Notes under the pieces: model-generated
The model's input: only the letters and a program-made list of their open reading frames with translations
Told to the model about the DNA's origin: nothing
Database searches by the model: none
In this document: in pieces, positions 1,269 to 58,734 of the stretch
Layout of the letters: every line of letters starts with the position of its first letter
Position numbering within the stretch: the stretch's first letter is position 1
NCBI GenBank assembly: GCA_963575745.1
Contig: CAUYUJ010000266.1
Coordinates: forward strand, 1-64,000
Length of the DNA: 64,000 nucleotides
Source of the DNA: Prorocentrum cordatum
Lineage: Eukaryota
Reading direction: 5' to 3'
Program-made: the position numbers and the translations under genes

Positions 1269-1316
1269 CTGAGGCGGCGGCATGCCCAGGCCCATCAGGG
1301 AGGACGTGGCCCCGCC
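1269..1316 (-). CDS. Host RS/hnRNP-Q-AcD-like gene, putative exon 8 (GGATSSLMGLGMPPPQ); 3' boundary uncertain
   Basis: Acceptor cccag|G and phase-compatible with the preceding exon. No clear donor identified. Confidence 0.45.
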
Positions 1317-1544
1317 CTGGGCGCCGGGCGCGACGGGCACTGCGAGGACCGTGGGTCGGGGCTCCGCCTCTGTCGGCGCCCTCGGACCCCCCTCCAGCCG
1401 CGGGCGCCACCGGGGTCGAGGACTGAGCATCGAGCTGTCCGGGCGGGCCCGGCTCCTTCGTCGGCCCCTGGGGGTCTCCCGCGGGGCACCGTCGTGCCGG
1501 GAGGATGAGGCATGCAGGGTCTCACGCTTGGGGCGCCCTTACCC

Positions 1545-1737
1545 TTATGTCGGGCCTGTCCCCCTACAGGGGGATTTTCGACGCCTAATAAAAAATACCC
1601 CCCCCAAAATCAAAACATAGTCCAAACATAGTCCAGGGACTATTTTTGGAGTATCTTTGGGCCTTTGGGGGATATTTTGGGGGTACTTTATAATTTTTCG
1701 TCGAAAATCCCCCTGCAGGGGGACACGCCCGACATAA
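1545..1737. mobile_element. MITE family A copy
   Basis: 36-bp TIR with 2 mismatches; exact 8-bp TSD CCTTACCC. Confidence 0.9.
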
Positions 1738-2260
1738 CCTTACCCCAGGGCTGTCTTCGGAGACCTCTCGTTGCCTCGGCCCCTCCGGCCGCCGACGGGA
1801 CCTGGGATCGAGCCAGCGCGGCTGCCGAACGGGCCAGCCTCGCAACACCCTGAACCGAGCCCGCCCGGCGGCCGAGAGGGCCCGGACGCCGACTGGGCCC
1901 ACAGGGGACCCCCGTCCCGCCTCGGCCCCCGCGCCAGCGGGGCAGGACGGATGGGGGGGGGGTCCAATCTCTGGACGGCGGGTTCCAAAAGGGGTTTTGG
2001 GGGACTGAGGGGGTTTTCCAGAGAGCCCCCAAAAGGGGCCTCGGAAACCTCGTCCAAACGGGGGGTGCGAAGCCCCGGGGGGGGCCCCAGCCTGGAAAAC
2101 CCCCGCCCCAAAAACGCCCCCTTTTGGAACCCCCTGGTTTGGGGCGGCTCTGGGCCCTGCCTGGGCTCTCCGGAGGCAGGGCGGGGCGCGCGCGTGGCCG
2201 CGTGGCCGCTGGCCGGCGGGACCCCGGGGGGGGCCTCGAGCGGGCGGGCCGGGGCCCGTA

Positions 2261-2612
2261 CACTGGACCAGGATAGTAAGGATGCGCGGTACAGTCGGGG
2301 CGTTGACCTAAGGAACCCTAAATAAGGAACGAGGCCCCTGTTTTCCACAAGTTCAGCTTCGATTTCCGATCGAAAACATAAGGAAAACCTGAGGCAAGCT
2401 GTGAAACACTTAAGGAACGCGGAGCCCCTCCCCAACCAAAAGGGTTCCTTCTTCAGGGCCCCGACTGTAAGGGTGCAAGGGGCCTTGGAACGCCATGTTG
2501 ACGATTTCCGTGCGGAGCGCAGCAGAATGCCGAAGGATGCCGGATGCCGAAGGGGCACGGATGCAAGGGTAGCCCTGGAAAGTAGCCCCATCCTTACTAT
2601 CATGGTTGACTG
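2261..2612. mobile_element. Tc1/mariner(pogo)-type MITE with TA TSD
   Basis: TA|CACTGGACCAGGATAGTAAGGATG ... CATCCTTACTATCATGGTTGACTG|TA. A related right end lies at 614-637 and the internal part is repeated at about 29341-29520. Confidence 0.75.
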
Positions 2613-2959
2613 TACTTGGGCGCCGCTGGAGTAGGCAGTGGTAAGCGATGGCATCGCTCTCCAGCGATTGCACTCTCAGATCTCCAGCGCATTGACGAAG
2701 CCAAGACGGATCATTTTTTCTGCATTCGGCCTCTAGCGGCCCTCGCCAGGCCTCGGAAGCGTCCAAAAACGACTCAGGATGAAAAGCCGGTCCTGGGGAA
2801 TGGGTCGAGACTTCTGGGGACCCCGTATGGAAAAATCACGACATCGGATCTCTAGGCTCCCGCATGTCGATCGGAGAAGAGTCGTCAAGCCCGTGAGGAG
2901 CTTGGGGGGATGGCCAGGCAAAAGCCGGCGAGACGATGGCTGTCTACAGGGGAGAACAC

Positions 2960-3978
<1,019 letters not shown>

Positions 3979-4899
3979 GACAGGAACGACGGGGCCGACT
4001 GGTCTTACACTGTCCATGGCTGCGTGGCTGAAGTCGGATACCGAAGAGCGGATTCTGCTTGTTGATTTCGTTCTCACTTCTGGGATAGGATTCTTAGTGA
4101 TCCCCCCTCTGGTGCACATTGTGTTGGTTCACGTTGTGGTTTTCTTCAATCAGGGTGCTCCTCCTGGGGCTCGAAACCCTGTTCTTACCAGGGGACAGTT
4201 TTTCGCGTCAGACGGCGCCCCTGGCCCAACAAGAACGGCTCCCGCTGGATACTTCCTCACAGTGTATTCAAAATTGCGCTCTCTCGCGGGACTTCCTCAC
4301 ATTATGCTCTCGCTCTGGATTTCCTTCAAAATGACTTGGCAATCACGCCAAATCTCGCGAGTGGTGCGAAACTGACGCTTCAGCAAACCGCCCGTTCGAA
4401 CCGACCGTCTGGTTCTGCGTTTTGCTTTCGTGTTCCGAACCCCCCTCTTGCTCATCTCCCTCGTGTTCCATCCTTCTCCCTCTCCCTTGTCTCTTCTATC
4501 CTCGTTCCTCTCCCGAGTTTTGGGGGGCTACGCCAACTACGCGTGGCAGGGAATGAAGATATAACCCCAAGGGGGGTACGATCAAAACCGAATAGGGCAC
4601 CGAAGATTCGTGATATACTTGTTGAACGACACGCAAACAGATGAGAGCGAACGAAAGAAACCGCGCCTAGACGGCGTATTTGCGAACAAATGACAGCACG
4701 CGTGATCAAGAGAAGGAGAAATGCCGGGCTCAAGCGTGCAAGCGCGCGGACATCGCTAGGCCCCGGGACGCAGTGCGCAAGCATGCTGGTACAGCACGAG
4801 GGTGGACGGCAAAGCACGGGCCAGGGAGGAGGAGAGGGGAGAGACGGGGACGAGGAAGGGAAGAACGCGACTGGTCTGAACAGTGTCGCGCCGCAGCCG

Positions 4900-6100
4900 A
4901 ATGCCACCCAGACGGATTTCGCAAGATAGTTTGCAGCTTGTCGCGGTTGCCCCCTGCTACGGCCAAGGCTTGCGTGTGCGAGCAGGACGTCCATTGTAAT
5001 CGAGTCCACCCTCGCGAGCGGCGAATATTAAATTTCCGCGGTGCCACCTAGTAAAACTGCAACTTTCGAAAACCATGGCTTCAGGACGGCTCTTTGGAGC
5101 GTCCCGGGTAAGTTTACCGTAAAACTGACGCTGCATTTCCAACAGGAATAATGACAGCGGTCCAGTGTCGGCGACTCCACGAACTTTTGCATTGCCCACT
5201 CTGAATACAAACGCCGGCTAAATGTTGTGCATTTCCCGATAACCCCATGCCTTGATTACCTTGATTGGCTTACGCCGAATCTGTCTCTGTCCACTTTATT
5301 TGCGTGGCTCCAAACCAAGCGCGCTGTTTGAAATACGCCAAAGCTTCGCGTGAGGTCCGCGCGAGGGTTCCCGTCGGCGCTTACCAGGCCCCAAGATTTA
5401 CTGCATTACTTTTGGAAGTCATGGGTTCACCACCTGCGCTTGCTTATATTTGGAACAGCATGGCTTTCCCAGGGTTTACTTCCAGCCCGTATATTTCTGC
5501 AACTGCAGCCACCAAATTCACATGAGTCTGGAGCGCGTCAAGGTCCCTGGAAGTCAGCATGGTGTCGTATGCGTACATCGCGTTTTCAATGGCCCGGTAT
5601 GATTGGGTATCCCTGATGGGTTTTTCCACTGCCAAGCGTTTGTTTAAGCTTCCAATCACATCGACTTAACTATGATAAACAAATATGGCGAAAGCGGGCC
5701 CCTTGTGCGATTCCAGCGGGGTGTGCTCTCTGCGATGACGTCGCGTCTGCGTCTTGGACGAAGAATGTGTACTATGCATATGCCTTGGATCATCTCGACT
5801 ATCGCTGGTGAGACGCGGAATTGTTGTAGTGCGCGTGCAAGCCTTTTTGGGCTGATGCGGTCGAAAACGTTGCTCCAATTGAAAAGTAGGAACCATGGTT
5901 TACCATCCTTGTCCCCCAACGTAGCGTCGATCAGCCGGCGCGCCAAGAATAGCGTTTCGCTTGTGCCACGGCGGGGCCAGAAACCACAATGAGACTCCCT
6001 TAATGCTTCTTCGGCCTCTCCATGTTTGAGACATTTTAATGAAATGCGGGCGATTCAAAATACTAATTGCTGTTGGCGCCCCCTCCAATGCCCACTGTGG
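4900..6100 (-). pseudogene. Decayed non-LTR retrotransposon (LINE) reverse transcriptase
   Basis: Motifs WSNVFDRIS, GPLSPYLFIIV, YAYDT (YADD-like) and YGLEVNPGK across broken frames. Confidence 0.8.
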
Positions 6101-7135
6101 TTTTCAATTGAAGCGCCCCTCCCGGGGCTCGCAGCCTGCTTTTTACAACGGGTAGTTCCTCTTCATTGATTGAGACGCCGCTCCCTCGACACTAAGGACC
6201 CACGCTCTCGCTGAGAACTTGATCACGGTTCATGCAGGACTGACGCTTCAACGACCTGCCCTCTCCACGGAGCCGCCTGGGCCCGCCCTCACGACCCGCC
6301 CGTGAGGGCCCGCCCGCCCAACCCGCCCGTCTGGTTCTGCTGCGTGTTTTCCTGCTCCGACCCCCTCTCCTGCTAATCTCTCGTGCCTCATCCTTCTCCC
6401 TCCCACTTGTCCCTTCCCGCCTCGCTTCTCTACCCTGTTTTATAGGGGCTGCGCCAACAGCGCGTGGCAGGCAAGGAGGATACACCCCCAAGGGGGTACG
6501 ATTGAAGACGAAGAGGGCGAGTATTGAGGCTTCGGGATACACATGTTGAGCCACGCGCAAGCAGAATAGAACGAACAATTATAACATGAGTGTTGTTGTT
6601 TTGTTGGTGGTGTTGCTGTCGTTGCTGAAATTGTTGTTGTTGTTGTCGTCCTCATCCGGGACCCACCCGCGACCCAACCGTGACCCAACCGCGACCTGCT
6701 CGCGACCCGTTCGTGACCCGTTCGTGACCCACCCGCGGCCCATCCCCGACCCACCCCCGACCCACCCACATTGATTCGACGAAAATGCGGCAGGAGGGCC
6801 CGAGAAATCGAATCGATAAGTCGGATCGGCGATCTGAATGAAGCAGGTTGGCGGAAATCGGCAGCCGAGTCGAGACAAGTCAAATCGGCGGAACTCGGCA
6901 GGCTAACAAGGCTTCCATTGAGAAACGGAACTCCAAGCAGGAGTACGAAGTCGAATCGAATTGAATAGGAACCGATCGAAATCGAATCGAATCGAGTGGG
7001 AGTCGAGATGAGACCTGATGTGGCGTGAATGCGAAACAATTCTCGCCTTCGGCTGGCTTCTTCAAAGCCTCGCAGACTGCCGGCGACCCCGCCGCTCCCT
7101 CACTTGTATCTGCAACTACGCGGGCTGTACATATA

Positions 7136-7822
<687 letters not shown>

Positions 7823-7921
7823 CATAAGGTCAGCTCTGACTTCTTGGAGCGGCGCTGGCGGCGCCTCTGGCGCCGCCCCCGGCGCGCTCCTCGGGCCAGG
7901 AGAGCGTCCGACAGCGTATGC

Positions 7922-8074
7922 TTAGGTCGGGCACGTCCCCCTACAGACGGATTTTGGACGAAAGATACAGATACCCAAAACATATTCAAAAATTGTCCCC
8001 CAAAAATCGTCCCGAGACTATTTTATTTGACTATTTTTGAGTCTTCCTCCCGTAGAGGGACAAGCCCGATTTGA
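7922..8074. mobile_element. MITE family A copy
   Basis: TIRs; TSD GCGTATGC/GCGTGTGC (7 of 8). Confidence 0.8.
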
Positions 8075-9091
8075 GCGTGTGCTCGTGCTGGTGTTCTTCT
8101 TCGAAGGGAACCAGCAGTGCGATGCCTCTCTCCCACGGGGAGCGGCGCGGTGGCAACGGGCTCCGAGGGTAATGGCGGGCCCGGACTCCGGGGCCTTGCT
8201 TTGGGGACCAGGGCCGGACCTGAGCGTTGTTTTTCGTGTTGCTGCCCGTCTGTCTGCACCTCCCTGCCAAAACGAAAACAAGACACGGCCGAAAGCCAGC
8301 AAAGTAGCGTGCAGGTCCAGCCCTGGTCGGGGACTGGCTCTTCACATCCTGGGCCTCTTTCTGACAGTCCAGGGGTCCGTGGAGGGCCCCCGGGCGGCCG
8401 AAAGCAACCAAAACTCTCAGAACCCGTTTCCGTTTCGGGACCCCACTCCTTCATTAGACGAAGAAATTGGCGGCGCGCAGAAGGTGGTAGGGGGAGGGGG
8501 GAGAGCTTCTTAGAAGGAGGGTTCTTAGAAGGCGCCGGCCTTACATCTACAGAGAAGGCCCGCGCCTTCTAAGAAGCAGGGGTGCTTCTAAGAAGCCTTC
8601 CCCCCTCCCCCTACCCCCCACTGCGCGTGGCCGAAGAAGCTACATGAACATGACCTTTCGGAGGCCCGCGCGGATTCCTTGGATCGGCGCGGTTTCCGGG
8701 CCATCACTTGGACCTCCGGCGGCAGGTCGTGGAGCTTCGGGCATCCCGGGGACGCTCTCGGAGAGGCGCAGCTGCTGGCACGCACCCCGAGGCAGAGCAA
8801 GTCCCCGGGAACCCCCGAGAGCCTCGGGAAACCGGCAGCACCTGCCGACATCGTGTGAGGTCTGACGGTCCCAGCTTCCCTAGAGGCCTCCTAGATGCGG
8901 TCAGAGTAGATGGGGTCGGAGGATCGCGCCGCATCGCCAATACGTCGGCGATGCATCGGCGATGCACTTGCGACGTCGGCTACACATCCGCGACGTCGGC
9001 GTGGAGAAAACTGAGCCCCACATCGAGCCGCATCGCCCATGCGTCGCCGATGCAGCGGCGATGCGGCGCCATCCTCCGACCCCACCTACCC

Positions 9092-9255
9092 TTAGGTCGG
9101 GCGTGTCCCCCTACAGGGGGATTTTGGGCGAAACATTGAAATGCTCAAAAATGACTCCCCCAAAATGCTCAAAAATAGTCAAAACATCGTCCCCCTACGA
9201 TTCCCTCACCACTTTCGAGTCTTACGCCCCTGTACATGGGGCAGGCCCGACTCGA
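9092..9255. mobile_element. MITE family A copy
   Basis: TIRs; TSD ACCTACCC/ACCTGCTC (6 of 8). Confidence 0.7.
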
Positions 9256-9342
9256 ACCTGCTCCGACCCCGTCTCCAGGCGGCCTGGATCCCCTCGTGGC
9301 GGTCCTTTCCCCGCGGGAGCGGTTGGCGGGGGCTCGGGGCGC

Positions 9343-9424
9343 CCTCTCGGCGTCGCGGATGCGGACGATCAGCACCGAGGACGGGTTGCGCGTGCCGAAC
9401 AGCGGCCCGCGGTCCAGCACCGCC
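9343..9424 (-). CDS. Host gene exon 7 ((R)AVLDRGPLFGTRNPSSVLIVRIRDAER)
   Basis: ggcag|G acceptor, GC donor, 82 bp. Joins the 15605-15684 exon to give LPPHLQRAVLDRGPLFGTRNPSSVLIVRIR, resembling hnRNP-Q acidic-domain-like helical repeats. Confidence 0.8.
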
Positions 9425-9761
9425 CTGCCCACGGGGAAGGGGGGGGGGGCTGCGCTCCTCCCTCCCCTCTATCCCTCCTCCCTCCTTCCTCCTCCTCCTC
9501 CTCCTCCCTACCTCCTTCCTGCTTCCTCCTTCCTCCTTCCTCTTCTCCCCTCCCCGTCCTCCTCCTCTTCCCCTCTTCCTCCTCCTTCTCCTGCTCTTCT
9601 CCCTTCTCCTCCGCCTCCTCCTCCTCTTCCTCCTCCTCCTCCTCCTCCTCCTCCTTCCTCCTTCCTCCTTCCTCCTTCCTCCTTCTTCCTCCTTCTACCT
9701 TCATCCTTTCTCCTTGCTCCTGCCTCCATTCTCCTCCTCTTTTCCCCTTCCCCTCCTCCTC

Positions 9762-9861
9762 NNNNNNNNNNNNNNNNNNNNNNNNNNNNNNNNNNNNNNN
9801 NNNNNNNNNNNNNNNNNNNNNNNNNNNNNNNNNNNNNNNNNNNNNNNNNNNNNNNNNNNNN
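9762..9861. other. Assembly gap (100 N) inside a (CCT)n tract
   Basis: N run. Confidence 1.
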
Positions 9862-10784
9862 CCTCCTCCTCCTCCTCCTCCTCCTCCTCCTCCTCCCTCC
9901 TCTTCCTCATCCTCCTCCTCATCATCCGCCTCCTCCTCCTGGCGCGCCATCCTCGAGCGGACACGCAACAAGCCAACATGCCTCATGCAACACAAGCGCG
10001 GGGCTCGAGACAACCTCGAACTCGAGCAAGACGCACCATCCTCGAGCGGGCACGCAACATGATCGACTCACGAGCACGGAAAATAACATAGACATGTGAG
10101 GCATAGCAAAATGTTCAAAACACCTGATGGGGCTACGGGCAATTGCAATGCTGAGTGTATCGTTCTTGATGTACCGTGCGAAGGGCTGTGCTGTGCAGCG
10201 ACTGTGCTCTATAGCGTTGTGGATCGAGTCCTCCTTCGCATCCGAGTCATGACCGAACTGATCTGGATCTTGAGCTCGAGCTGCCTGAGCACATAGTAGC
10301 TGCCCCGGAGCTGATTCGAGCGGAAACGTGGGGGACGTTCAATCAACTCGACCTCAAAATCCGACTCAGCTCCGACAAGGACGACTCGGCACGGGACGGC
10401 GGCTCACGGGCGCGCCACGGGATGCGCCAGGGGCGTCAGAGGGGCTGCGCCAGGGGACGTGTCGGGGGACGCATCAGGGGACGTGCCCTGGACGTGTCAG
10501 GGACCTGCCACGGGACGTCCCAGGGCGCGTGCCATGCCAGATGATGTTATGTTACGGGGCGTTGCAAGGGGCATCCGCGGAACGGGCAGGGGTAACGCCT
10601 GGGGACGAGCCAGGAAGCGCGACGGATGACGAGCCAGGGAGCGTGCCACACCGAGTGGCGCGCTGGGGGACGGGCCAGGGCAGGTCGCGCCAGAACGTCG
10701 CAAGGGGCACGCCCGGGGCCCGGGCCGGTGCGCCAGGGGACGCCCCACGGCCGGGCGGGGTTGGATTGCGATGCGCCCTACTGC

Positions 10785-11710
10785 AACAAGCGTTTCGCTC
10801 GAGACGTCCTCAACAACTCCTCGTGTTAGACATCCGCCTGGACGACCTGGACACGTGAAACCAAGCGTCTCGCTCGAGACGTTCTCAACACCTCCTCGTG
10901 CTGGACATCGGCTTGGACACCCTGGGCGAGTGAATACAAGCGTTCCGCTCGAGGCATGCTGACCAAATCCTCATGCTAGACATCTGCCTGGGCGACCTGG
11001 ACACTTGAAATCAAGCGGTTCGCTCAACACATCCTCAACACATCTTTATGCTAGACATCCGCCTGGGCGACCTGGACACTTGAAATCAAGCGATTCGCTC
11101 GATGCATCATCACTCTATCTTCAAGTTAGATATCCGCCTGGGTGACCTGGGTACGTGAAAACAAGCTTCTCGCTCAACACATCCTGAACACACATTCATG
11201 CTATACATCCACTTGGGCGACCTGGACACTTGAAATCAAGAAGTTCGCTCGGTGCATCATCAAACCATCTTCAAGTTAGACATCCGCCTGGGCGACCCGG
11301 GCATGTGAAAACAAGCGTTTTGCTCAACACATCCTCAACAAATCCTCATGCTAGACATGCACCTGGGCGACCTGGACACATGAAAGCAAGCGTCTCTCTC
11401 GAGAAATCCTCAACACACGTTCATGCTAGACATGCGCCTGGGCGACCTGGACACGTGAAAACAAGCGTTTCGCTCAAGACGTTCTCAACACAGCCTCATG
11501 CTCGACATCCGCCTGGGCGACCTGGACACGTGAAAACAAGCGTCTCTCTCGCGACATCCTCAACACATCCTCATGCTAGACATCTGCCTGAGCAACCTGG
11601 ACGCGTGAAAACAAGCTTCTCGCTCAACACATCCTGAACACACATCCAAATGCTAGACATCTGCCTGGGCAACCTGGAACAGTGAAAACAAGCGTCTCGC
11701 TCGAGATATC
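10785..11710. repeat. 75-bp tandem satellite, about 12 copies
   Basis: cctggacacgtgaaaacaagcg recurs at 75-bp spacing (e.g. 11446 and 11521). Confidence 0.92.
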
Positions 11711-13166
11711 TGCAAGACCTGGGCAAGTGGAAACAAGCATTTCACCTGAGACATCCACTCAATTCTGGTCACCAAGATTTCCGCTCTATCTATCTATAGA
11801 TATACATATATATTATCAAAAGAAATGTTTCGCTCGAGACATCCTCAACATATTCTGCAAAACAAGCGTTTCGCTCGAGACATCCGAACAAACATAAATG
11901 TGTACTTCACCATGTGTTTTATCGAGCGGGTTATTGCCCCTTTCCAGCTTCTCGCTAGAGCGGTGTTCGCCGCCTCGCCGCTGACGAACAGATGTTACCG
12001 ATCGGGATTTCAAAAACCAGCGTTTCGCTCGAGACATCCTGAACGTTCTAATTCACAAGCCCTACGCGACCTCGTTATTTATTGCAAGATACATTCGCGG
12101 GCCCTACGCAAATGGAGGCAAGGGCGTTAACAAACAAAAAGAGAACCATGGGTCCGAGCCCTTTCCAGGGAAGTCAGCTTTTCCATGTTCTTGCAAAATT
12201 CCAAAATCTCCGAACCTGGTTATTTAATTTGGATTCTGCGCAAAACGCTCCGCACCATTTCCTTTGCAAGGGAAAACGGGGGTCTACGGAACCTGTTAGG
12301 CAACGAGGATCCGAGATGGAGGGCACATTTTCCTCGAGCGGGCATGCGCGAAACGCATGGTTGTCCACCGCGAATGGGACTTTACCTCGTCCTCTGTCAC
12401 CGGAAATTCGCCAGCCCACCTCAGCATGGCAGCGGAGGATACAAAACCATCCTGATGGGGAACCCTGGGTCAACGCCCTTTCCGGGAACAGTCCCCGAAG
12501 GGGTCGAGATCTCCGTTGCCTCCTCCTGATCGTCCGTCCCCGAAGCCTCCTCCTGTCTACTTGATGCGAGATTTGCGCGATAGCTCCCCCCTGGAGGCCC
12601 GCAGTGACTCCCGCTATGCGGGCTCGATAGCTGCCAAGGCTACGCTGCAAATGAAGAGCCCTTGGTCCGTGAAGTCTTCAGTCCGCGGCTTTGCCGCCTC
12701 TGAACCGTCCGGCCCGTGCACGGGCATCTGCACGCGCTGCATTTCGGCGCCCACAGTGTAAGCGAGCCCAGATGCCGCCGCTAAGATCCGTGCGTGTGCC
12801 CTCGTTGAGCGGAGGACAGCCAAGAAAATCGAGAATCGCTTTTCCGTTCTTCCGCGATGGCGGCCGCGGCAGGCCCCGCGCTTCCCCTCAAGGCAACGCC
12901 ACGCCTCGCGCCGGCTCCGCCCTGGGAGTGCTCAAAAAGAGCCAAAGACAGCTCGGACAGCAGACACCTGTAGGGACCGTCGCAGCTGAGCGTGCATATC
13001 TGGAGGGCTCTGCTACGGCAGCGCGTTTCCCTTCCCCTCTCCTCCTCCTCCTCCTCCTCCTCCTCCTCCTCGTCGGCGGCATCGTCGTCGGCGGCATCGT
13101 CGTGGCGTTCCTCCTCACGTCGTCCTCGTCGTCTTCCTTCTGTTGCATGGTGTTCACACGCCAGAG

Positions 13167-13297
13167 CTCGCCATCGCTCGGACGTCCATTCCCTGTGTTT
13201 TTTTCGGTTTCGTGCGTGGCTTCTTCGCCAAATGATCAAGGATGCTCCTCGATGGCCCTCGCCGAAGGAAAAATGCACACGTCCGAGCGATGCCAAG
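13167..13297. mobile_element. MITE family B copy; longer copy at 38162-38445
   Basis: TIR ctcgccatcgctcggacgt / acgtccgagcgatgccaag; flanks AGAG/AGAG. Confidence 0.7.
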
Positions 13298-14199
13298 AGA
13301 GAGGGGGGGAGGGGGGCGGGGCAGGCAGGCCAGGCCGCGAGGACCTGTCTGACCACACTCTTCAGTCATCGCTGCGCGCGCTGAGGTGTGCTGCGTGCGT
13401 TTGCGTGGTTGTGTGTGTGCGTGTGTGACTGTGTGTGTATTATATACAGACAGAAGAGGAAAGCCAGATAGAGAGAGAGAGAGACAGAGAACAGGAGAGA
13501 GACAGAGATAGAGAAAAGAGAGAGAGAGAGAGAGGGACAGGCAGGCAGACAGACAGCGAGAGAAATCAGACCAGAGAGAAAGAAAGAGAGAAACGGAGAC
13601 AGAGAGAGGGATCTATCTGTACACAGAGATGGAGAAAGAGAGAGAGAGAGAGATGGCATGGTGGACGGTCGGCCGAAATTCCTGACCTCGGTGGGCACTG
13701 GTGCCAAAGTTGGGCTGGTGCCTGGGTCGCGCCTTCAAGAGGAGAGGGAGACAGAGAGAGAAAGAGAGAGAGAGAGAGAGACATCATAGATAACGATCTA
13801 GATAGAGGAGAGAGCGCGTTTCACGGGCGCTCGCCTTGGGAACATTCGGCGGCGCGTTTCGAACCAGGCGGTGGGCCCCCCCCCATACTCGGCGCCGTCG
13901 ATCCTTTCCAGGGGGACTCCCCTCCCTCCCAGACCCCCCCTCCCGAACCCCCTCCCCTCCCCCCCCCCTCCCAGGGGCGGGGGTTTCAAACCCGCCCCCC
14001 CTCGGAGCCGGCGCGGGCGCTGGCGGCCGCCAGCAACGCCGACGGCGGGGACGTAGCGACGATGACCAGAGGCAGCCCAAAGGGGGCGGGGGGGGTTCAA
14101 ACCCCCACCCCCCTGGCGCCGGCGCCGGCGCCAGCACTGGCGGCGGCCAGCAGCGCCAGTGCTGGCGCCGGCGACGGCGGGGACGCAGCGGACGATTAC

Positions 14200-46432: not shown

Positions 46433-46478
<46 letters not shown>

Positions 46479-46479
46479 G
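45979..46479. repeat. Compound (GT)n/(GCGCGT)n/(GCGTGT)n microsatellite, left flank of the retroelement
   Basis: Read directly. Confidence 0.97.
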
Positions 46480-47019
46480 CTCTTTTGCAGTTTGAATGGT
46501 CAGAAGATAGCAATGCTATGTCTGCAATTGGGTAGCTCAGTAATTGAATTCGGGCAGTTACATGAGCGTTTCATTCTCATGCCACGCTTCACCACACATC
46601 TCACATCCTACCATAGCTGTTTCTTTTCAGGCGATTACGGCACGGGTTTAGGCTAGCGCTGAAGACGCTCTAATGAGAGCGGCGCACACATGTGGGCTCG
46701 TGTCGATTCCATGCTACTAAAGTTGCTTATCGTTGGATGCTATTTGGTAAAATATTCATCGAGTGCTCTGCGAGCGAAGGGACCCCGATAATACCGTCTT
46801 GCACTACTCCTCTGACTTTGTCTTGGTGTTGCAGGGTGGCCACGAGTCTTGGGGTGTCGCTTGAGGATCTTGAGTTCGGCAATGTGTTCTCTTTCGAGGC
46901 CTCCGAAGACCCACATGAGTACCCCAATGATGACCTCAAGGACCCCTGGAGCTCCAAGGGCACGCACGACCTACAGGGTGACCTACTTTATCGATAAGCT
47001 TCTACTTCACTTCCAAGTG
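46480..47019 (+). repeat. Pseudo-LTR, left copy
   Basis: Colinear with 52753-53292 (constant offset 6273); about 16 substitutions counted by eye (~97% identity). Confidence 0.95.
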
Positions 47020-47311
47020 CGTACGCGGCGGGATCGGAGTGGCGACGAGCCGTCCCCATGTACCGCAGCCGCGGCAGGAGGTACGTAATGTTTGCCAGTT
47101 CTGTCTTCATATTACGAGTCTGGTTTGCCAGTCCAGTCTCCATATTACGAGTCTGGTTTGCCAGTGCAGCATTCATATCACAATCTCTTCTAAGCTCGAG
47201 TTTCCCTATGTATGATTCTGGCTTGTTCAGCCAAGGTGATGTCCCCCGAGCGTGCACACCACCACCCGTGAAGGCGGCCAAATACCGTGTCTCAAGGTTG
47301 TGGCGGTGCAA
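46988..47311 (-). CDS. Possible antisense ORF of the element with 11-aa coiled-coil repeats (LANQTRNMETG)
   Basis: A 33-bp tandem duplication at 47091-47178 preserves the frame. May extend upstream through the C-run near 47400. Confidence 0.35.
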   Translation of the reverse strand: MHRHNLETRYLAAFTGGGVHARGTSPWLNKPESYIGKLELRRDCDMNAALANQTRNMETGLANQTRNMKTELANITYLLPRLRYMGTARRHSDPAAYALGSEVEAYR

Positions 47312-48097
47312 GTGGTTGGGTTTGTGTACTACCTTCTCTTCCGAGACCGTGCTGCAATGGTGGCTAAACCGATCTCGGCGGCGCGATTGGAGACGCCCCC
47401 CCCCCCCCCCGACTCTGCACTCCCCACGATCGAGAGCACGCAGGCCCTCGTCATCGGCACCCAGGCCACCGCTTTCGACATCTCAATGTACGATTTATGC
47501 TCTGGATTCTGGTGTGCTGGTTTGCCTCTGGTGTACACGGAAGCCCTCTCCAGGACCAAGGCAACCGATGTATCCACAAATTTCGGGGCCAGCGCGGACC
47601 CTTTCAATATGATGGCCTCACGGGATCTCAAGTACGTGCTCGCGCTTACTCTGATATGTATGGTCTCTGTAGTTGGGCCTCGAACATCCCGACAGATCCT
47701 ATGTTTTCTGATCTACATGTGCCAAAGGAGATAACACTATTATTTGCAGGGGGTCTCTGGCAAGTGCTCGTGGCACAACCTTCGACTGCCTTCATTGATG
47801 GACTTCATGATATGAAACGTGCCTTGCTACCCCTGATGGACAAGCCAGGGACCCCACATGATGTATCAGCTCTGGCTCTTGCCGTAACGACAGTGATGTC
47901 TGTGATTCGGATTCGTGGCCTCTTTATTGCAGGAAGACGCCAACGGTGGCGGGCCCGTCAACTTTGTCGAAGCCTCCATCCTATGTGTACAGAGGCCCTT
48001 GCCCGCCCAGACTCCGCACGATTACCACACGCACTCGAACTAGCTCTGTTCCTACGTACTCAGTACATGGCCCTGCGAGGCCTGACCCCCCCCGAAG

Positions 48098-48697
48098 ATG
48101 CCCAATAGCAGCTACCTCTACCAGGTAGGCTCCGAGGTCCTCTACATTGGCAAGGGTAGTATCACGAGGGCCCATGGGCAGGCCTCAGGGGGTGTAGGAC
48201 GTTTTCGGGAACATGTCCGAGCTCTCTTCCAAGTCCAAAAAGGTCAACCTGTAAAAGAAGCTAGTCGTTATCATGGGCTACTTCCAGAATGTAGGCGCTG
48301 GCTCTTGTTTTTCTTCGTGCTGATTGCTTCCTCGTCCGAGATTTCGAGCCCCGAGAGTGCCTGCATTATGTTTGCCCAGCCGTCAGCTAACAACCAACCC
48401 AACGTTCGGTTGGGCCGCAGGTGTGCACGTGTGCGAGCTGGCCCACGCCGTCGGCGAGGACGACGGGACCGACGGCTTGCCTTGCCCCATAGCCCTGTGC
48501 CGCACTCCGAGAGCGCCCACTGGATGGAGGAGCGCATCAATTCCCTTCTCACTAGAGTCCTTGGGCACCAGAAGTATTCAAAACCACGTTATTATTGGCA
48601 AGACCGTTTGAGACTTACGTTTGATGAGCTCTATATTACCTTGATCCAGCACCGCTACTCAAAACATGGCATCCTGGGACCTTTGGGTATATATTAG
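48098..48697 (+). CDS. GIY-YIG endonuclease domain (N-terminal part of a disrupted EN-RT polyprotein, probably starting near 47656)
   Basis: SYLY...YIGKG, RFREH, a conserved E and PSANN. Joins the upstream frame via a shift in C8 (48086-48093). Confidence 0.8.
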   Translation: MPNSSYLYQVGSEVLYIGKGSITRAHGQASGGVGRFREHVRALFQVQKGQPVKEASRYHGLLPECRRWLLFFFVLIASSSEISSPESACIMFAQPSANNQPNVRLGRRCARVRAGPRRRRGRRDRRLALPHSPVPHSESAHWMEERINSLLTRVLGHQKYSKPRYYWQDRLRLTFDELYITLIQHRYSKHGILGPLGIY

Positions 48698-48731
48698 CCA
48701 AAGATGACAAAACTACTCCTTCGATGGGCTT

Positions 48732-50900
48732 GTGGGCACCACTTGGACATCTCTTGGGACCTCGCTTGCCGCTCCCGTCCTGGGAAAAAATGACTACGCC
48801 TATGTGTTTTGGTCCCTGGCTTCGCTTTGCCCTCGCTGGCAAGATAAAGTCCGGGTTCAAACATCCTTGCGAATCTTCCTACAGTCCCAAGGGTTGCCAG
48901 TCCCACGTATGACGACGTTCGAGGTACATTCTGAACAAGAGAAGATCGCCGCATCCCGATGGATCCAGCAGGTGTTTGCACGGCTAGCTCAGCACCGACC
49001 TGGCTGGGCAGGCCTCTTTCGCGGGCAGACGCGGATCGTGGTCAAAAGCATCCCGAACCTCCGCAAGACCTGCCACAATCTTCCTCGGGTGTGTCAACGA
49101 TTACAATTCACAGCCCTTCAAAGTTCCACTGCCATGGACCTTGATCGGGCCGCCAAGGGCCTTGACATGCAGAAGATGTCTTTGAATGCGAAGACCCCGA
49201 TGTCTAACCGAATTTTGACCACACAAGTATTGGGGACGTCTTGCCGTACTTGGGCACAGCGTATGGGACTCTGGGGACGTACGGATGCGGTTTCCCTTCC
49301 AGCTCTCCCTCGGCCTCAGCCCCAACGAGCCCCTGAGCCTCCACGACTAGCCCCCAGATACCAGCATTTACAGGCTACCTCCCAGAAGTTCTTCAAGACC
49401 CTCCAAGAGCACTCCGACGCGGTCTTCGCGCTTGAGGATAAGGACCCCAACAGCCTCTGGAAGGTGGACCCCAAGTGCATGATGGCAAGATGGCTCAGCA
49501 TCCTGGCCCACGCCCCGCATCGGTGGCAGGTTAGCCTTGCATCCTTGCCGGCGGTCACGGACTGGTACCGCCTCCTCTACGATAGCACGATCCCAAAAAG
49601 CCTACGACAAAGGAGAGAGGGCAAGTTCACCCAAAAGAATGTTCCATACTCTTACCCCACTGTAAAGGCAAAATGTTGGCTGGACGTTGACCGCCCTCCC
49701 GAGGCGGGGCGCCACCAATGCGCGAAGCCGAAGCACTCGTGCTTCAGGAACATCTGCTCGTTTGCCAAGTTTCCCTCTCGCCGCCTGTACAGGTATTTGA
49801 GCCGCGCCACGGTCTTTGCAGTGGAGACCGTGAACCCAGGTTGGGCGTGCCGCGGCTTGGAGGACGGCGTCCCGAATTTGGTGGCGCAGTTTGCGAAGCT
49901 AGAGAAAAACGCCTCGCTGAACCCTAAGTGCCTCTGGTGTGGGACCCCAATGGAAGCTCCAGGTACCTTTGTGGCTGACGCGGGGCAGGCTTACGAGGAA
50001 ACCCCCGTGACCACGATTTGGGGCTGTCTGGACCGATTGTTTGAGAGGTTACGGAAAGCGACCCCCAAGGAGGCCTTCACGATTCTCCATAGCAAGCGAA
50101 GTCACGTCTTCTTGGGGGGGGGGGCTCTATCAATGCCAAGCTTTGGGATCGCACTATTCTTCTGTTTGGAAGCCTCAAGCGAGCTCTCACGGGATTTATG
50201 GGAACGCGATAGTTAAAAGCTCTGGGACTCATCTTACACCAATGCCAAGGAATCCCCATTGGAGGCCCATTGAGTGGCGCGATCCTACACGCCGTGTTTT
50301 CTGAAGCGGAGTGGCTGTGTGATCGAGCCCACCCGCGGAATCGTCAGAGGATTGCTCGTGGCCGCTTAGTTGATGATTTGTTCCTCGCATCCTCCCGAGT
50401 TTGTCGTGCCTGTCTTTGTCAGCATGTTGAACGTGTTTACGGCCAGGTAGTGAAGTTTAACATCGAAGATGAAGTTCGGGTCGGGGAAGACACGGTGGTT
50501 CTCAAGTTTCTAGAGGCCGAGCTCCATGTAAACTTCTCCGAGATCAAGGTTTGGGTCATTCACAAGAATGAACGCTTTGCGTTTCAAAGGGGGACCCTCG
50601 AAGATTGTCAAGAAATCGGTCTGTCCGTTCGCAGGGGCCCTCACCGAGACCCAATTACGACTGCAGAGAGCCGAGCTTAAAGGACGCCTGCATCGATGGG
50701 GCCAGCACCACCTCGACCTGAAAACTGGATTGTCTTACTAAGTTCTGGCATGCTCCACTTCCTAAGACTGGGATACCCCGAGAATATCTTGAGAAGAATT
50801 TGGCGATATGTGTCTCCGCTGACTTATCTAAATGATATCATTGAACTATGCTTGCGTTTGGTTTACTCTACCAGTTCCCATCTACTTCCCCGTCCGTCTC
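48732..50900 (+). CDS. Penelope-type reverse transcriptase (frameshifted, in-frame TAG at 50210)
   Basis: EDKDPN (DKG-like), YPTVKAK...FRNICS, ADAGQAYE (motif A), QGIPIGGPLSG (50246-50278), RLVDD (50363-50377), LKFLE, and thumb LGYPENIL. Confidence 0.88.
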
Positions 50901-51019
50901 GCCTTGCTGCTGTTCATGACCAAGGCATTGCCGTACTTGAGAAGTCTCCGCACCTGCCCGAAGGTCACCTACCTGCGCGCCCCTCCCACGCCGCCCAGCG
51001 GACGCTAGCTACCGACACC

Positions 51020-52596
51020 ATGAGCTGGCGTGGTGGCAACCAGAGGCCTTATGGCAAGGGCGGCGGAGGAGGAAAGGGCCCTCGTGCCCCGCGGTTTCAG
51101 GGGCAATACGGTGGTGGTCAGCACTGGCAGGGCCCACCTCCTCCGCGTGCAGGGACCTTTACCTCCATGGCCCAGGAGATGAACTCGTTCATTGAGAACA
51201 TCGGAGCCCTTGGTGAGATGTCGCGTTTGGGGCTATCCTCAGCAACCAGCAGCAGGGCTCCGCCTCAGGTCCTACCACGACGGCACCTGGCACAAATACA
51301 ACACCCGCAACGACACCTACGACACCGACCCCAGCTACGGAACTGGCCAATGCGCTGACCCAAGTCCTTGAAGGTGATGGGTCCCAACGTGCGCGCCAAG
51401 ATACGCGAGTGCAACATACTGTCAACCGCTTGCAGGAGTTGGTTTCGAACCGCCCGACGGGCAGTAATATCTTTGAGGAGCAGCTCGAGCAGTCGGAGGT
51501 CTTCCGCAAGCTGCGAGCTTCGTTGGCTACCATGTCGGATACCGTGGCCACCCACGGTCGCCAGATCTCCACGCTCCAGACCTCCATCGAGGACCAGGGC
51601 GAGGATGTACGATCTACTCGTGCGCTGTTGGAACGCATGGCGCAGGGCATGGGCTTGGCCGTTCCGCCTGCTGCACCGCGCACTCCGAGACGTCCACCTA
51701 CCTCTGGCGCTGTGGGCACCCCGTCGCCATCGGGCTTGCCAAGCCCCGCGCCGCTGGCTGCTGCGGCTGGCGCGATGGGCGGTGACCACGATTCCCCAGG
51801 TGGCTCTCCTGCGCGTGATGGCGCCCTCGGAGTGCCTTGCTTCGATCAGCAAGTGGGCGCAGCTACCCATGTGAAAGCTCCTGGGTTCCTCGGCGCTGGC
51901 ACTGGCAGGCCTGATATGACTACGTTGGGTACCACGATTGCAAATGCACCCGACGCCAACATTACCTTCTCCGAATGGTGGAAAGAGGTCAGTCGTGCAA
52001 AAGGTTTGTCGCAGTGGGGGGTGAAAGTCAAGAACATTGGCTGTTCCGCTCAGGATGCGGACAACTGCAGCCACGTGATGAAGATTGGTGAGGCGCTGTT
52101 CGCCAGGCTTACGGATAGCGGTGAGTGGAGTTCGACGGACATGCAGACGATTCTCTTGCAGCGAGACCTCGATTCTGATCCTTACATTGCTGAGTACTAT
52201 CGTGGCAGGCTCCCTGCCCGCTCTAATGCTTGTGGGCCCTCACCCCTTTCCTTCTTCTCGCTCGACACTTTGTCGCGCATCGTGTTTCTGTGCATCTCTT
52301 GTGTTTGTATTCGGCTAGCCGTCGAGGGCTCCCTTCTCATCAGTGATGTCCGTGCCCTCACTGTTGGCAGCCTCGAACATGCCTTGGGTGAGGTGCCCCG
52401 TGTCTTCCCACTTGTGGTGGGAAGGTTTGGCCTCGATTTCGTCGCGAGTCGCTGGCTGTACCCGCCCCCTCTTGCCTCTGCAAGATTCCACAATATTGAT
52501 GTGGCAACGCCCACGGGGCTTACCCACGTTGCGCAGAACTTAGGTCAGGCTGCGCTTGTCTCGGGCGCAGCCGTGTTTGTGGATTGGTTCCTTTAA
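51020..52596 (+). CDS. Accessory ORF of the element: RG/G-rich N-terminus, T/P linker, coiled coil, small C-terminal domain (one frameshift near 51230)
   Basis: MSWRGGNQRPYGKGGGGGKG... shifts at G4 (51229-51232) into a long open frame with heptads LATMSDTVATHGRQISTLQTSIEDQGEDVRSTRALLE. Confidence 0.65.
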
Positions 52597-52752
52597 GCCT
52601 ACATGATCCCATGATCCCTAGCTAGGAACCCCAGCCATGACCTTAGGGAGCAGGTGATGTTGCCGACCTCAGGCGACGGATATCTCCTTTTTGTCTTTGC
52701 CTTTTTGATGCCCTCCCTGTCTTTGGGACGGTTGTGTGTGTGTGTGCGTGTG

Positions 52753-53292
52753 CTCTTTTGCAGTTTGAATGGTCAGAAGATAGCAATGCTATGTCTGCAA
52801 TTGGGTAGCTCAGTAGTTGAATTCGGGCAGTTACATGGGCGTTTCATTCTCATGCCACGCTTCACCACACATCTCACATCCTACCATAGCTGTTTCTTTT
52901 CAGGCGATTACGGCACGGGTTTAGGCTAGCGCTGAAGACGCTCTAATGAGAGCGGCGCACACATGTGGGCTCGTGTCGATTCCATGCTACTAAAGTTGCT
53001 TCTCGTTGGATGCTCTGTGGTAAGATATTCATCGAGTGCTCTGCGAGCGAAGGGACCCCGAGAATACCGTCTTGTACTACTCCTCTGGCGTTGTCTTGGT
53101 GTTGCAAGGTGGCCAAGAGTCTTGGGGTGTCGCTTGAGGATCTTGAGTTCGGCAATGCGTTCTCTTTGGAGGCCTCCGAAGACCCACATGAGTACCCCAA
53201 TGATGACCTCAAGGACCTCTGGAGCTCCAAGGGCACGCACGACCTACAGGGTGACCTGCTTTATCGATAAGCTTCTACTTCACTTCCAAGTG
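52753..53292 (+). repeat. Pseudo-LTR, right copy
   Basis: Direct repeat of 46480-47019, preceded by a 20-nt internal (TG)7CGTGTG tract. Confidence 0.95.
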
Positions 53293-55342: not shown

Positions 55343-55959
55343 CCCAACCGTGTGCAGTTGTGAGTAACGCAGCTGTGAATATCATCTTCGGTGGAGCTCC
55401 CTACGGGGCCACGAAGCGTGGGGAGGGGGGTGCCGAAGTGGGTGGGGAGACGCATGCGGACGGTGGCCACTGGGGCCTTCGTTGGAGCTTCCGATGGGGC
55501 CGCGAACCGTGTGAGGAGTGTGCCGAAATGGGTATGCGGTGGGCGGGGAGGACGCATGCGGACGCGGCCACTGGAGCCTTCGGCGGAGCTCCCTATGGGG
55601 CCACGAACCGTGTGAGGGGTGTGCCGAGATGGGCATGCGGTGGGCGGGGAGGACGCGTGCGGACGCGGCCACTAGGGCCTTCGGTGGAGCTCCCTACAGG
55701 GCCACGAACCGTGTGAGGGGTGTGCCGGTACAGGCATGCTGTGGGCGGGGAGGGCGCATGCGGACGCGGCCACTGGGGCCTTCGGTGGAGCTCCCGATGG
55801 GGCCACGAACCGTGTGAGGGGTGTGCCAGAATGGACATGCGGAGGGCAGAGGCAAGGAGGGGGAGGAGGGAGGAGGGGGAGAAGGAAGGAAGGAAGGAGG
55901 GAACGCGGGGCGCTCCCCTCGAATCGAGGACCCAACACCACAGGATGATTGGGGAAAAA
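55343..55959 (+). mobile_element. Satellite-carrying non-autonomous element (101-bp units, terminal hairpin plus A-run)
   Basis: Same 5' leader and unit as the 22.4-kb array; ends CCCAAC...GATTGGG GAAAAA. Confidence 0.65.
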
Positions 55960-55962
55960 CAG

Positions 55963-56124
55963 CATAAACATAAACTTTTGGCACTACGCGCGGATTTCTT
56001 GGATCTGCGCTGGACCCCCCTCTCTGGCGCGCGGAGCGTGCCAGGGGCGGCGCCAGAGGCGCCGCCAGGAGGGCCCAGCGCCGTTCCAAGAAATCTGCGC
56101 GAGTGCCCAGAGCTTATGTTTATG
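55963..56124. mobile_element. MITE family C; partial copies at about 42380-42500 and 7845-7890 (inverted)
   Basis: TIR cataaacataaacttttggcact / agtgcccagagcttatgtttatg. Confidence 0.65.
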
Positions 56125-56408
56125 ATTATTTTCTCCATCGGCACGAAGAACGCGAGGGCACCCTCCCCGAACCGACCTCGGTCCCGTGCTCCAGCCCGAC
56201 CGCAGACGTGTCCGGTGGGCCCCAGGCGGGGCCACCTCCAGGCTGCAGGGCGCCAACCCCAAGGCAGGGCCCCCAGGACCAACCCCCAGGACCAACCTTC
56301 CCCGAACCGACCTCGGGCCCGCACTCCGGCCCGACCGCAGGATCCGCCCCGCGGGCCCCTGGCAGGGCCCTCCAGGACCAGCCCCCAGGCTGCAAAGGCG
56401 CCGCCCGC

Positions 56409-56455
56409 CTGCTCCGCGACCGAGAGCGCCGCCGGGAGCTCGATCTCTTGCTGGC
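56409..56455 (-). CDS. Host gene exon 2 (ASKRSSSRRRSRSRS), RS-rich
   Basis: ag|G acceptor, AG|GC donor, 47 bp, phase 0 to 2. Confidence 0.65.
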
Positions 56456-58677
56456 CTCGGCGTCGGCGGGCGCCGTGCCCCGCACGCTCCTCCTCCTCCT
56501 CCTCCTCCTCCTCCTCCTCCTCCTCCTCCTCCTCCTCCTCCTCCTCCTCCACCTCCACCTCCACCTCCACCTCCACCACCACCACCACCACCACCTCCTC
56601 CCCCCCTCTCCCCCGAGGCCGGCCGTTCGGTCCCGGCGACGGTTCCGCCACTCGCGGCCTTCACATCGGGCGTTGCTGGAAGTGATCCTGCCCCAAAACG
56701 CGTCCCCAGCTTTTCGCGCCCTGTTGGGGCCGATGGGGCCCTCCAGGCATGGTGCAGGGTGCTCTGGAGGCCATCTGGGCCTCCGCGGAAATCCTAGGGG
56801 CACCTCGGGCCAGGGACACCTTTGGCAACATCCAGCTTCGGCGATCTAGCTCCCATCCTGAAAGCAGCAACAGGCTAAGTTTGAGAACTGCAGGAACCCT
56901 TCATTACTACAAGGTCGGAGGTTCGCCACGTGCCGTCTTACACTGCACTGGAACGAGAAGGAGAGGGAGAGAGAGAGAGAGAACAAACAAAAAACGAGAG
57001 AGAAAGAGAAAGACAGGAATCCGCCGACCCTGTCGGCGTCTGTGAGGGGCTTCTCCGATCGAGTCGTCGCCGCCGCTGCTCGTGAACCGTTGGCGCCGTC
57101 GTCCTCTTTCCCTGCCCTCGCCTCCCCGTGCCCGCCGCCGCCCCAACCGCTCTCCGTGCCCGGGCCCTCCTCCGCGGGCGCGCCGGCCCAAGTGCGAGAA
57201 ACGTCGTGGTAGACTCGAAGGGAAGCCACTTCCCTTCTTTCTAAAATAATCAACCCCCTTCCCATTGATCCCTTTGATCCCTTTGATCAGGGGGAATGGA
57301 AGGGAAGCCCCTTCCCATCCCTCTGATCCAATTCGAAGGAAAGGGGTCAAAAGGAAGGGAAGCCCCTTCCCTTTGATCCATTCCCTGGGGGGGGGGGTCT
57401 CGGGGGGGGGGGGGGGTCCTGGGGGGGTTCCCGGGTCAGATACGACTCCCCCCGCGGGGTGTCCTGGAGCCCAGAGAGCCCAAGACGAGCCAGGAGTGCC
57501 CAACGAGGCCCCCAACACGGTCCAAGAGGGCTTCGAATCGCCGAACGATCTGTCCAAGACGCCTTCACGGCCTCCAGACGGCCCATGAGTCCTGCAAGAC
57601 TTCCCAAGAAGCCTCCAGGAGCATTACCAAGAGGGCCCCAAAAGAAAACTCATTGATTCCCTAAAGATTTATGAAGCATTTCGGCGTTCTCGCCTCTTCC
57701 AACTCCAGACGCTCCCAGACGTCCCAAGAGGCCTCAGATCCTTCCAAGACAGTCGAAGAGGCCTCCAGGAGAGACCCCAACCGGCCCAAGAAAGTCCCCA
57801 GACGGCCCAAGACGCCTCCAAAACAGCCCACGAGGCCCCCCAGACGGCTCCAAGAGCATGCCCAGATGAGAAACCAGAACGGACATTTCGTGCCCTCGGC
57901 CCCGAGAGGCTCCCAAGAGGGAGGGTGCGCCGCTGGATCTCCCCAAGGGAGGGAGGGGGGACCCCCCCCCCCCTTGAAGGGGGGATGGGGGGGGGGGGTT
58001 CTGGACCCCCCCACCCCACCCCTTTAGTGTATTCAGGGAGATCCACTGGCGCACTTTCCCCAAGAGGCCCAAGAGACTCCCAGGACGCCCCCAGTTCCCC
58101 AGGAATCCCAAAGCTCTCTGGAGGCGCCTAAAGGGTCCTCCTGCTCCTCCTCCTCCTCCTCCTCCTCGTCGTCGTTGTCGTCGTCATATTCAGGGTCAGC
58201 GGCACTGGCTGTAAGGCTTTCTCAAAGGGAGGGAGGGAGAGAGAGAGAGAGAGAGAGCGAGAGAAACATGGATTAAAGAGAGAGAGAGAGAGAGAGAACG
58301 AGAGAGAGAGAGAGGGAGAGAGAGAGAAAGAGGAACCAACAAAGAAAAAAAAACAGAGGGAGAGAGAGAGAGAGAGATATGGAGAAAGAAACAGAAAAAG
58401 AACAAGTGTGAGAGAGAGGCACAACAAAAGAAGACACACGAGAGAGAGAGAGAGCTCTCAGAGAAGGAGAAGGAGGGATAAGGAGGTGGACGCTGCTACG
58501 ACACAAAATGCGAATCTGCTAAAATACACGTTTTCCTCCGGGAATGGGACGATGTTTGCCTCTTTTGGGGCTCCCCTGAAGGCCTCTCGACATGTCTTTG
58601 GGGCCTCTTGAGCCGTCTTGGGGGACCTCTCGGGCCGTCTTGAGGCCGTCTTGCGCTGCCCTGGGGCCCTCCTGCGC

Positions 58678-58734
58678 CTCTCCGACCACTTCTCTGATCG
58701 CGTCGAGCTCGCTGGCGAGGCGCGGCAGGGCGCC
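58678..58734 (-). CDS. Host gene, first exon visible in the window (GALPRLASELDAIREVVGE)
   Basis: cccag|G acceptor, AG|GC donor, 57 bp, phase 0 to 0. The gene probably starts further upstream (higher coordinates). Confidence 0.6.

Follow-up and report, generated by a model that had tools for sequence, protein, structure and literature searches.

Probable micro-exons of an unnamed dinoflagellate repeat-protein gene, spaced by multi-kilobase introns, in Prorocentrum cordatum

The window analysed here, which is the whole 64,000-nucleotide (nt) stretch from positions 1 to 64,000 of the forward strand of contig CAUYUJ010000266.1 (assembly GCA_963575745.1) of the dinoflagellate Prorocentrum cordatum, contains three micro-exons that, judged by their likeness to a family of small dinoflagellate proteins, are very probably real coding exons of one minus-strand spliced gene. 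An earlier note on this DNA, made from the letters and their open reading frames (ORFs), had joined eight minus-strand segments over some 57 kb into a single gene, and we keep its numbering, in which the three exons are exons 6, 7 and 8. Together with the two introns between them they are placed as follows (a slash in splice motifs marks the exon boundary).

15605-15684, minus strand: exon 6, 80 nt, first half of repeat 1 (tblastn and profile score)
9425-15604, minus strand: intron between exons 6 and 7, 6180 nt, GC...AG, contains the assembly gap at 9762-9861 (homologue residue numbering)
9344-9424, minus strand: exon 7, 81 nt, second half of repeat 1 (protein matches, tblastn and profile)
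1318-9343, minus strand: intron between exons 7 and 8, 8026 nt, GC...AG (flanks, ungapped scan and joined alignment)
1269-1317, minus strand: probable exon 8, at least 49 nt, Gly/Pro linker after repeat 1 (joined alignment and ungapped scan)

Exon 7 with its in-frame flanks (9322-9441, minus strand) matched 6 of 38 scored candidate proteins at 83-89% identity (E 2.5e-8 to 3.6e-6); the six relatives are 149-186 amino acids (aa) long, and they include one named Polarella glacialis and one MMETSP transcript. A tblastn comparison of these six proteins with the window (E<=0.05) returned 11 high-scoring segment pairs, which fell on exons 6 and 7 only, and with the window alone as the database the E values were 6e-12 to 1.3e-10 for exon 7 and 9e-7 to 3e-4 for exon 6, while the residue numbers of the homologues continued across the exon 6/exon 7 junction. 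A repeat-1 profile built from 31 family members scored 43.9 bits on exon 7 and 23.6 bits on exon 6. Once joined, exons 6-8 align without a gap over residues 1-69 to residues 34-102 of the family protein P0004 (69.6% identity, E 6e-30), with both junctions spanned, and they matched all 154 family proteins at E<=1e-3. The splice signals are regular: exon 6 has a cag/G acceptor preceded by a long pyrimidine tract and an AG/GC donor; exon 7, which contains the conserved GTRNPSSVLIVRIRDAE core, has a cag/G acceptor and an AG/GC donor; and exon 8 has a cag/G acceptor in the phase required. At both the 6/7 and the 7/8 junctions an Arg codon is formed from AG+G, and the first full codon of exon 8 specifies a Gly shared without exception by the six closest homologues. 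In an ungapped scan exon 8 ranked 3rd of 469,840 windows and was the best minus-strand window downstream of exon 7, and 26 of 29 invariant family positions (counted by eye) are kept across the three exons. Exons 6 and 7 can thus be taken as proven by homology, and exon 8 as a probable coding exon. The homology of exons 6-8 bears out the proposal of a spliced minus-strand gene with micro-exons, multi-kilobase introns and AG/GC donors.

The family to which these exons point, labelled here the dinoflagellate two-repeat "GTRNPS[SA]...R[IV]RDAE" family, is unnamed. In a search with a profile of five homologues, 1225 cluster representatives fell at E<=1e-3, of which 653 also passed E<=1e-10; a single protein had as many as 15 matched stretches, and the named members come from Polarella and Polykrikos. 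Exons 6 and 7 together encode the elements of repeat 1, namely three helices, the GTRNPSSVL loop and helix 4, while repeat 2, with the signature …YNLDARAAG…ARNPSAF…, follows the Gly/Pro linker in family proteins. Two-repeat relatives such as P0004 (from a Logan contig), P0002 ("unnamed protein product, partial [Polarella glacialis]") and P0094 (Polykrikos kofoidii) are 64-70% identical to exons 6-8 over the 69-70 residues of repeat 1 and linker and share the conserved core with exon 7; unlike them, the window has neither a second repeat nor an identified N-terminus. The AlphaFold model of P0004, made with 31 sequences, has a mean predicted local distance difference test (pLDDT) score of 80.3 and consists of two four-helix units, the first of which forms a block at pLDDT 93-97. 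Among 50 further family members searched with Pfam, RRM_1 occurred in 7, and MIF4G, a RanBP zinc finger, a CCCH finger and a kinase domain in one each. Judging by these sequences, the family often sits with RRM and other RNA-binding domains, and an RNA-related role is reasonable because members carry RRM, MIF4G, CCCH and RanBP zinc-finger domains. A profile search of solved structures by sequence gave a best E of 0.032, to the mitoribosomal protein mL164, and no published description of such a family in dinoflagellates was found among the papers listed by the literature searches, in which the family itself appears undescribed. The locus adds a new member to it, one that is probably unannotated.

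Taken together, the best explanation, and a very probable one, is that the micro-exons at 15605-15684, 9344-9424 and 1269-1317 are joined on the minus strand over introns of 6.2 and 8.0 kb, both of which use AG/GC donors and cag/G acceptors and split an Arg codon as AG+G. Exons 6-8 encode repeat 1, a four-helix unit, and the Gly/Pro linker after it, in a member of a family of small proteins that is hugely expanded in dinoflagellates. Typical members of this family carry two repeats in 150-190 aa, while others have an RS-rich (arginine/serine-rich) N-terminus or arrays of repeats beside an RRM or other RNA-binding domains. The protein may serve in mRNA handling as an adaptor that binds RNA or protein, by analogy with the NURR domain of hnRNP Q/SYNCRIP. 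The five segments proposed upstream are candidates only, and the second repeat probably lies beyond the left edge of the window.

Several observations weigh against this reading. Splicing is deduced from homology; exon 8 taken by itself is not significant (profile score -4.6, 6th of 21 matches), and its 49 nt are a minimum. No identical protein was present at 22-2000 aa in a collection of 5.8 billion proteins, and the locus may be unannotated or, alternatively, unexpressed. A repeat-2 profile run against the window gave only cross-matches to exons 6 and 7 and one weak stretch. That stretch, 25857-25928 on the minus strand, is open, reads LPPTIERVAADLPPSIARRGPSAF, has a weak likeness to repeat 2 (independent E-value 0.13) and has no adjoining AG/G acceptor; it could be a relic exon or chance. 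Searches of other collections were of little help. A sequencing-run search with positions 1-9761 returned 18 runs, 16 of them recorded as RNA and mostly marine metatranscriptomes, but each shared 0.05-0.07 of the sampled words, roughly the share that the (CAT)n and (ATC)n arrays take up within 1-9761, so the runs are uninformative on expression. A scan of metagenome contigs yielded 599 pattern matches, none of which was confirmed as a relative, and a short-protein search for transcript fragments of the gene found none.

At the 3' end the model probably lacks part of the gene. A second repeat follows the linker in five of the six closest homologues, P0006 being cut off partway into repeat 2, and with only 1268 nt left in the window after exon 8 the gene most likely continues past the left edge, where the second repeat probably lies. 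Single-repeat proteins do exist in the family, as P0005 is one.

How far the gene extends in the other direction is a question of the five upstream segments, which are listed below.

58678-58734, minus strand: candidate exon 1, not supported (best E 0.47 against family N-termini)
56409-56455, minus strand: candidate exon 2, RS-rich, unproven (strict RS window)
45675-45719, minus strand: candidate exon 3, RS-rich, GT donor, unproven (strict RS window)
36613-36661, minus strand: candidate exon 4, ATG start after tag/G, GA donor, not supported (best E 0.61)
31086-31112, minus strand: candidate exon 5, 27 nt, indistinguishable from chance

As a description of the letters, the eight-segment model of the earlier note is accurate. 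A six-frame search placed all eight proposed peptides on the minus strand at the claimed positions, each segment is preceded by AG and starts with G, and the donors are, in order, GC, GC, GT, GA, GT, GC and GC. The eight pieces join in a single frame of 435 nt, or 145 stop-free codons, and the seven introns measure 2222, 10689, 9013, 5500, 15401, 6180 and 8026 nt, in agreement with the proposed range of 2.2-15.4 kb. Both 100-N assembly gaps are intronic as claimed, one at 9762-9861 in proposed intron 6 and the other at 23207-23306 in proposed intron 5. All seven introns thus combine a G[T/C/A] donor with an AG/G acceptor, and homologues fix the boundaries of two. The window has a G+C content of 51-68% per 2 kb and holds 69 stop-to-stop frames of at least 250 codons, so an open frame alone carries little meaning here, and exon 1 of the model contains no start codon. 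The further claim that nearly the whole window is intron depends on exons 1-5, which are themselves unproven.

The case for the upstream segments is best for exons 2 and 3, which have the strongest RS character of any stretches in the six frames. Four strict RS windows occur in the six frames, all on the minus strand, against a mean of 0.15 and a maximum of 1 in 40 block-wise dinucleotide shuffles. The reversed sequence gave three RS windows, all simple and with serine codons of the AGY type only, and the other two real RS windows sit in purine-rich or AGC-rich simple sequence. Of 14 codons, 10 are different in exon 2 and 8 in exon 3; exon 2 draws on both Ser and both Arg codon families and exon 3 on both Ser families, unlike the two other real windows and the three of the reversed sequence, a codon pattern that resembles protein-level constraint; joined, the two would encode an RS stretch of 31 residues. 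On these grounds exons 2 and 3 may be real coding sequence, although no transcript or homologue ties them to exons 6-8. Such a combination has precedent in the family, in which a strong RS window (at least 20 Arg+Ser in 30 residues) is present in 9 of 154 proteins and an RS region accompanies the repeat unit in P0029, P0048, P0098, P0094 and P0062. P0029, 66% identical to exons 6-8, has in order a long Arg/Ser/Lys region, a GGGFDRK motif and the two-repeat unit, and, as a protein of 557 aa on a contig of 1726 nt, is effectively intron-free; P0048 has a similar architecture. The proposal of a protein with an RS domain and a unit like the hnRNP-Q acidic domain (AcD) therefore describes an arrangement that relatives such as P0029 and P0048 do have, but in the window neither a transcript nor a homologue connects the RS segments with those three exons at 1269-15684.

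Exons 1, 4 and 5 fare less well. A comparison with 159 family proteins gave nothing for exon 1 (best E 0.47) or for exons 4-5 (best E 0.61), and alignments of the full eight-segment model begin only at model residues 70-75. Homologues align across both junctions of exons 6-8 and with none of exons 1, 4 and 5. Exon 4 lies in a 170-codon open frame that has no Pfam match. In the homologues the segment preceding the repeat tends to end in Ser/Thr-x-Glu, and exon 5 ends likewise; so, however, do the peptides at 32 other donor sites upstream, none of the 33 alternative donor contexts inspected looked like a family N-terminus, and a position-specific score for the residues before the repeat placed exon 5 at rank 198 of 8082. 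Exons 1, 4 and 5 show no more than would be expected when segments are picked from thousands of candidates. Codon usage does not separate the segments either. The G+C content at third codon positions (GC3) is 0.91 in exons 1-5, a value that places them among the highest 2.3% of open 75-codon windows drawn at random, 0.96 in exons 6-8 and 0.83 in the FG-GAP ORF described below, but open islands of high GC3 abound, with 128 on the minus and 135 on the plus strand, so GC3 cannot discriminate exons 1-5. Introner-type inverted repeats, looked for at intron ends as a means of locating the donor of the intron before exon 6, were absent from the confirmed introns beyond simple-repeat complementarity. 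A self-comparison of the exon flanks returned simple repeats only, plus one dispersed repeat adjoining exon 4; this repeat, 36675-36838 against 43623-43776, is 78% identical over 166 nt and begins 14 nt upstream of that exon.

We consider it unlikely, on this evidence, that all eight segments belong to one mRNA encoding an RS-domain and AcD-like protein over at least 57 kb. Every junction has an AG/G acceptor and a G[C/T/A] donor with the frame open throughout, the two strongest RS stretches are found upstream of the domain exons on the strand expected, RS windows outnumber those of the shuffles, RS-bearing relatives exist, and the GC3 of exons 1-5 is near that of exons 6-8. Against this stand the lack of any family similarity in exons 1 and 4-5, the 33 equal donor sites and poor rank of exon 5, and the undiscriminating GC3. 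In the RS-bearing relatives examined, moreover, a GGFD/GFD-type motif stands 30-45 residues ahead of the repeat, and the full model has none, while the three closest homologues, P0004, P0006 and P0002, have short, non-RS N-termini. A GGFD/FAWER upstream exon was considered and set aside, as the sole minus-strand GGFD(K), at 47966-47977, stands directly after a stop inside a repeat-bounded element and was judged to be chance.

The RS segments might instead be exons of a separate, upstream SR-like gene on the same strand, with the AcD-like gene starting nearer exon 6. Dinoflagellate genes are typically arranged in same-strand arrays, and the window has a further gene-like feature on the strand of exons 6-8.

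62032-63291, minus strand: FG-GAP repeat membrane protein ORF, upstream neighbour, ends in a stop (Pfam FG-GAP_2, E 1.7e-83)

The excess of RS windows over the shuffles, their protein-like codon diversity and the 30-65 residues that are all the closest homologues need ahead of the repeat would suit such a split, yet no other exons of an SR-like gene, for example an RRM, were detected, and the long ORFs tried in that region gave no Pfam match; we hold this arrangement to be quite improbable. The description of the locus as an SR-like factor meets a related difficulty. Classical SR proteins are defined by at least one RRM together with an RS domain that spans some 50 residues or more. No RRM was found in the 145-residue model or in the window ORFs scanned by Pfam, and the RS stretch of the model is, compared with SR proteins, short and unproven. 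Relatives such as P0029 do have long Arg/Ser/Lys-rich regions, as SR and SR-like factors have. A decaying, no longer expressed pseudogene fragment would account for the absence of an identical public protein, of the second repeat within the window and of an identified start codon, but it is very improbable for exons 6-8 given that all three are intact and in frame, keep nearly all of the invariant positions, retain splice sites in the right phase and have the high GC3 noted above.

The remaining features of the window concern its neighbours and repeats. The FG-GAP ORF is a single large exon with six repeats, a Thr-rich stalk, a transmembrane segment and a short tail before the stop. Its best named matches are Prorocentrum cordatum paralogues of up to 92% identity, from a large paralogue family, and a search at 230-734 aa returned no identical public protein; the best P. 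cordatum FG-GAP gene model (P0167), considered as a possible copy of the window locus itself, proved to be a paralogue at 92% identity. Proposed intron 2 contains the following element.

46460-53032, plus strand: repeat-bounded element in proposed intron 2 (300-nt direct repeats)

Its direct repeats (46460-46759 and 52733-53032) are 98% identical, 6273 bp apart and flanked by (GTGTGC)n arrays, and they enclose about 5 kb of frame-shifted plus-strand ORFs, which had no Pfam match, to a reverse transcriptase or otherwise. One of these ORFs has look-alikes in the ESM Atlas that include DUF8422 clusters, one with RVT_1 in 17% of its members. The element is probably of the long terminal repeat (LTR) type; of the retroelement proposed antisense in intron 2, the LTR-like direct repeats are present and a Pfam reverse transcriptase is not. 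Satellite-like tandem arrays were observed at 40700-42263, 10785-11710, 22454-23186 and 55438-55847, with periods of 101, 75, 90 and 101 nt and 15.5, 12.3, 7.9 and 4.1 copies, respectively, and the units of the arrays at 22454 and 55438 look related by eye. At 2737-4065 on the plus strand a long open frame runs over (ATC)n and 87-nt repeats and has an SR-25-like Pfam match (E 1.4e-4) below the cut-off; it was rejected as a gene and is a low-complexity artefact instead.

What the repeat unit might do is approached through its likeness to the N-terminal acidic domain of hnRNP Q/SYNCRIP, which the earlier note had invoked. The NURR domain of hnRNP Q/SYNCRIP is likewise a small four-helix unit of about 60 residues, and the dinoflagellate family, like hnRNP Q, often stands alongside RRMs. 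PF18360 (hnRNP_Q_AcD) was sub-threshold in two of the 50 further members (P0007 and P0008, 20 and 21.5 bits, against a gathering cut-off of 26 bits), the SYNCRIP entries 6es4, 2nbb and 2mxt were within the first 14 Foldseek rows obtained with the P0004 model, and VIA-align gave Z 5.8 for 6es4_A (root-mean-square deviation, rmsd, 2.7 A over 58 residues) and Z 5.3 for 2mxt (rmsd 3.2 A over 62 residues). In the ESM Atlas a cluster at score 0.84 had PF18360 in 57% of its members. Telling against the link, Pfam, PF18360 included, had no match in exons 6 and 7 at E<=10 and none in any of the six closest homologues, Foldseek with the P0004 model had no match at E<=0.001, with the SYNCRIP rows at E>1, and in a wide structural search designed bundles and filovirus VP35 helical subdomains reached Z 5.0-5.5, so that the SYNCRIP chains, although at or near the top of both structural lists, are tied to within 1 Z with unrelated helical bundles. 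The PF18360 gathering score was reached by none of exons 6-7, the six closest homologues and the 50 further members; the identity in structural alignments to the SYNCRIP NURR structures is 11-17%, and the unit here occurs up to 15 times per protein, which differs from the hnRNP Q acidic domain. The four weak leads agree in direction and none reaches threshold; "AcD-like" is fair as a description, short of membership of PF18360. The N-terminal domain of SYNCRIP is a cryptic sequence-specific RNA-binding domain, as far as the account given in PMC5827114 goes, and that finding is the basis of the role suggested above for the protein. A stronger version, that the unit is a true, very divergent homologue of the SYNCRIP/hnRNP-Q NURR domain amplified in dinoflagellates and that the locus is an unannotated RS-bearing member over more than 57 kb, is a tentative possibility that we find doubtful on balance.

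The architecture of the locus can be compared with what is tabulated for the species. Donors in P. cordatum are GC in 51.4%, GT in 24.7% and GA in 23.8% of cases, and acceptors are AGG in 79.7%, according to Table 2 of PMC10666404. The mean intron is given as 4709 bp, the mean exon as 240 bp and the genome G+C as about 60% (PMC10666404; Dougan et al., 2023). The GC and GA donors, which had been called typical of dinoflagellates, fit the P. cordatum statistics of that source; like micro-exons and long introns they are normal in this species, and by its tabulation the splice types of the locus are ordinary; its exons of 80, 81 and at least 49 nt are far shorter than the averages given there and its introns longer than the mean, which puts the sizes at the extreme end.

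For the locus itself the point is mainly one of annotation: a conserved gene, with exons of about 80 nt placed 6-8 kb apart, is contained in no public protein of the collection searched, and genes of this sort are evidently easy to overlook in dinoflagellates. The family to which this one probably belongs is of wider interest, as a large group that has no name in Pfam, folds with confidence in the model and is found time and again beside RNA-binding domains and RS regions. Were the unit a true NURR homologue, it would represent a lineage-specific class of RNA-binding repeats with more than 1000 clusters and up to 15 copies per protein, fused to RS, RRM, MIF4G and zinc-finger regions, and such a class would suit organisms that regulate their genes mostly post-transcriptionally. 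If the link to the SYNCRIP NURR domain holds, the members of this family would be candidate RNA-handling factors in a lineage thought to be largely post-transcriptionally regulated.

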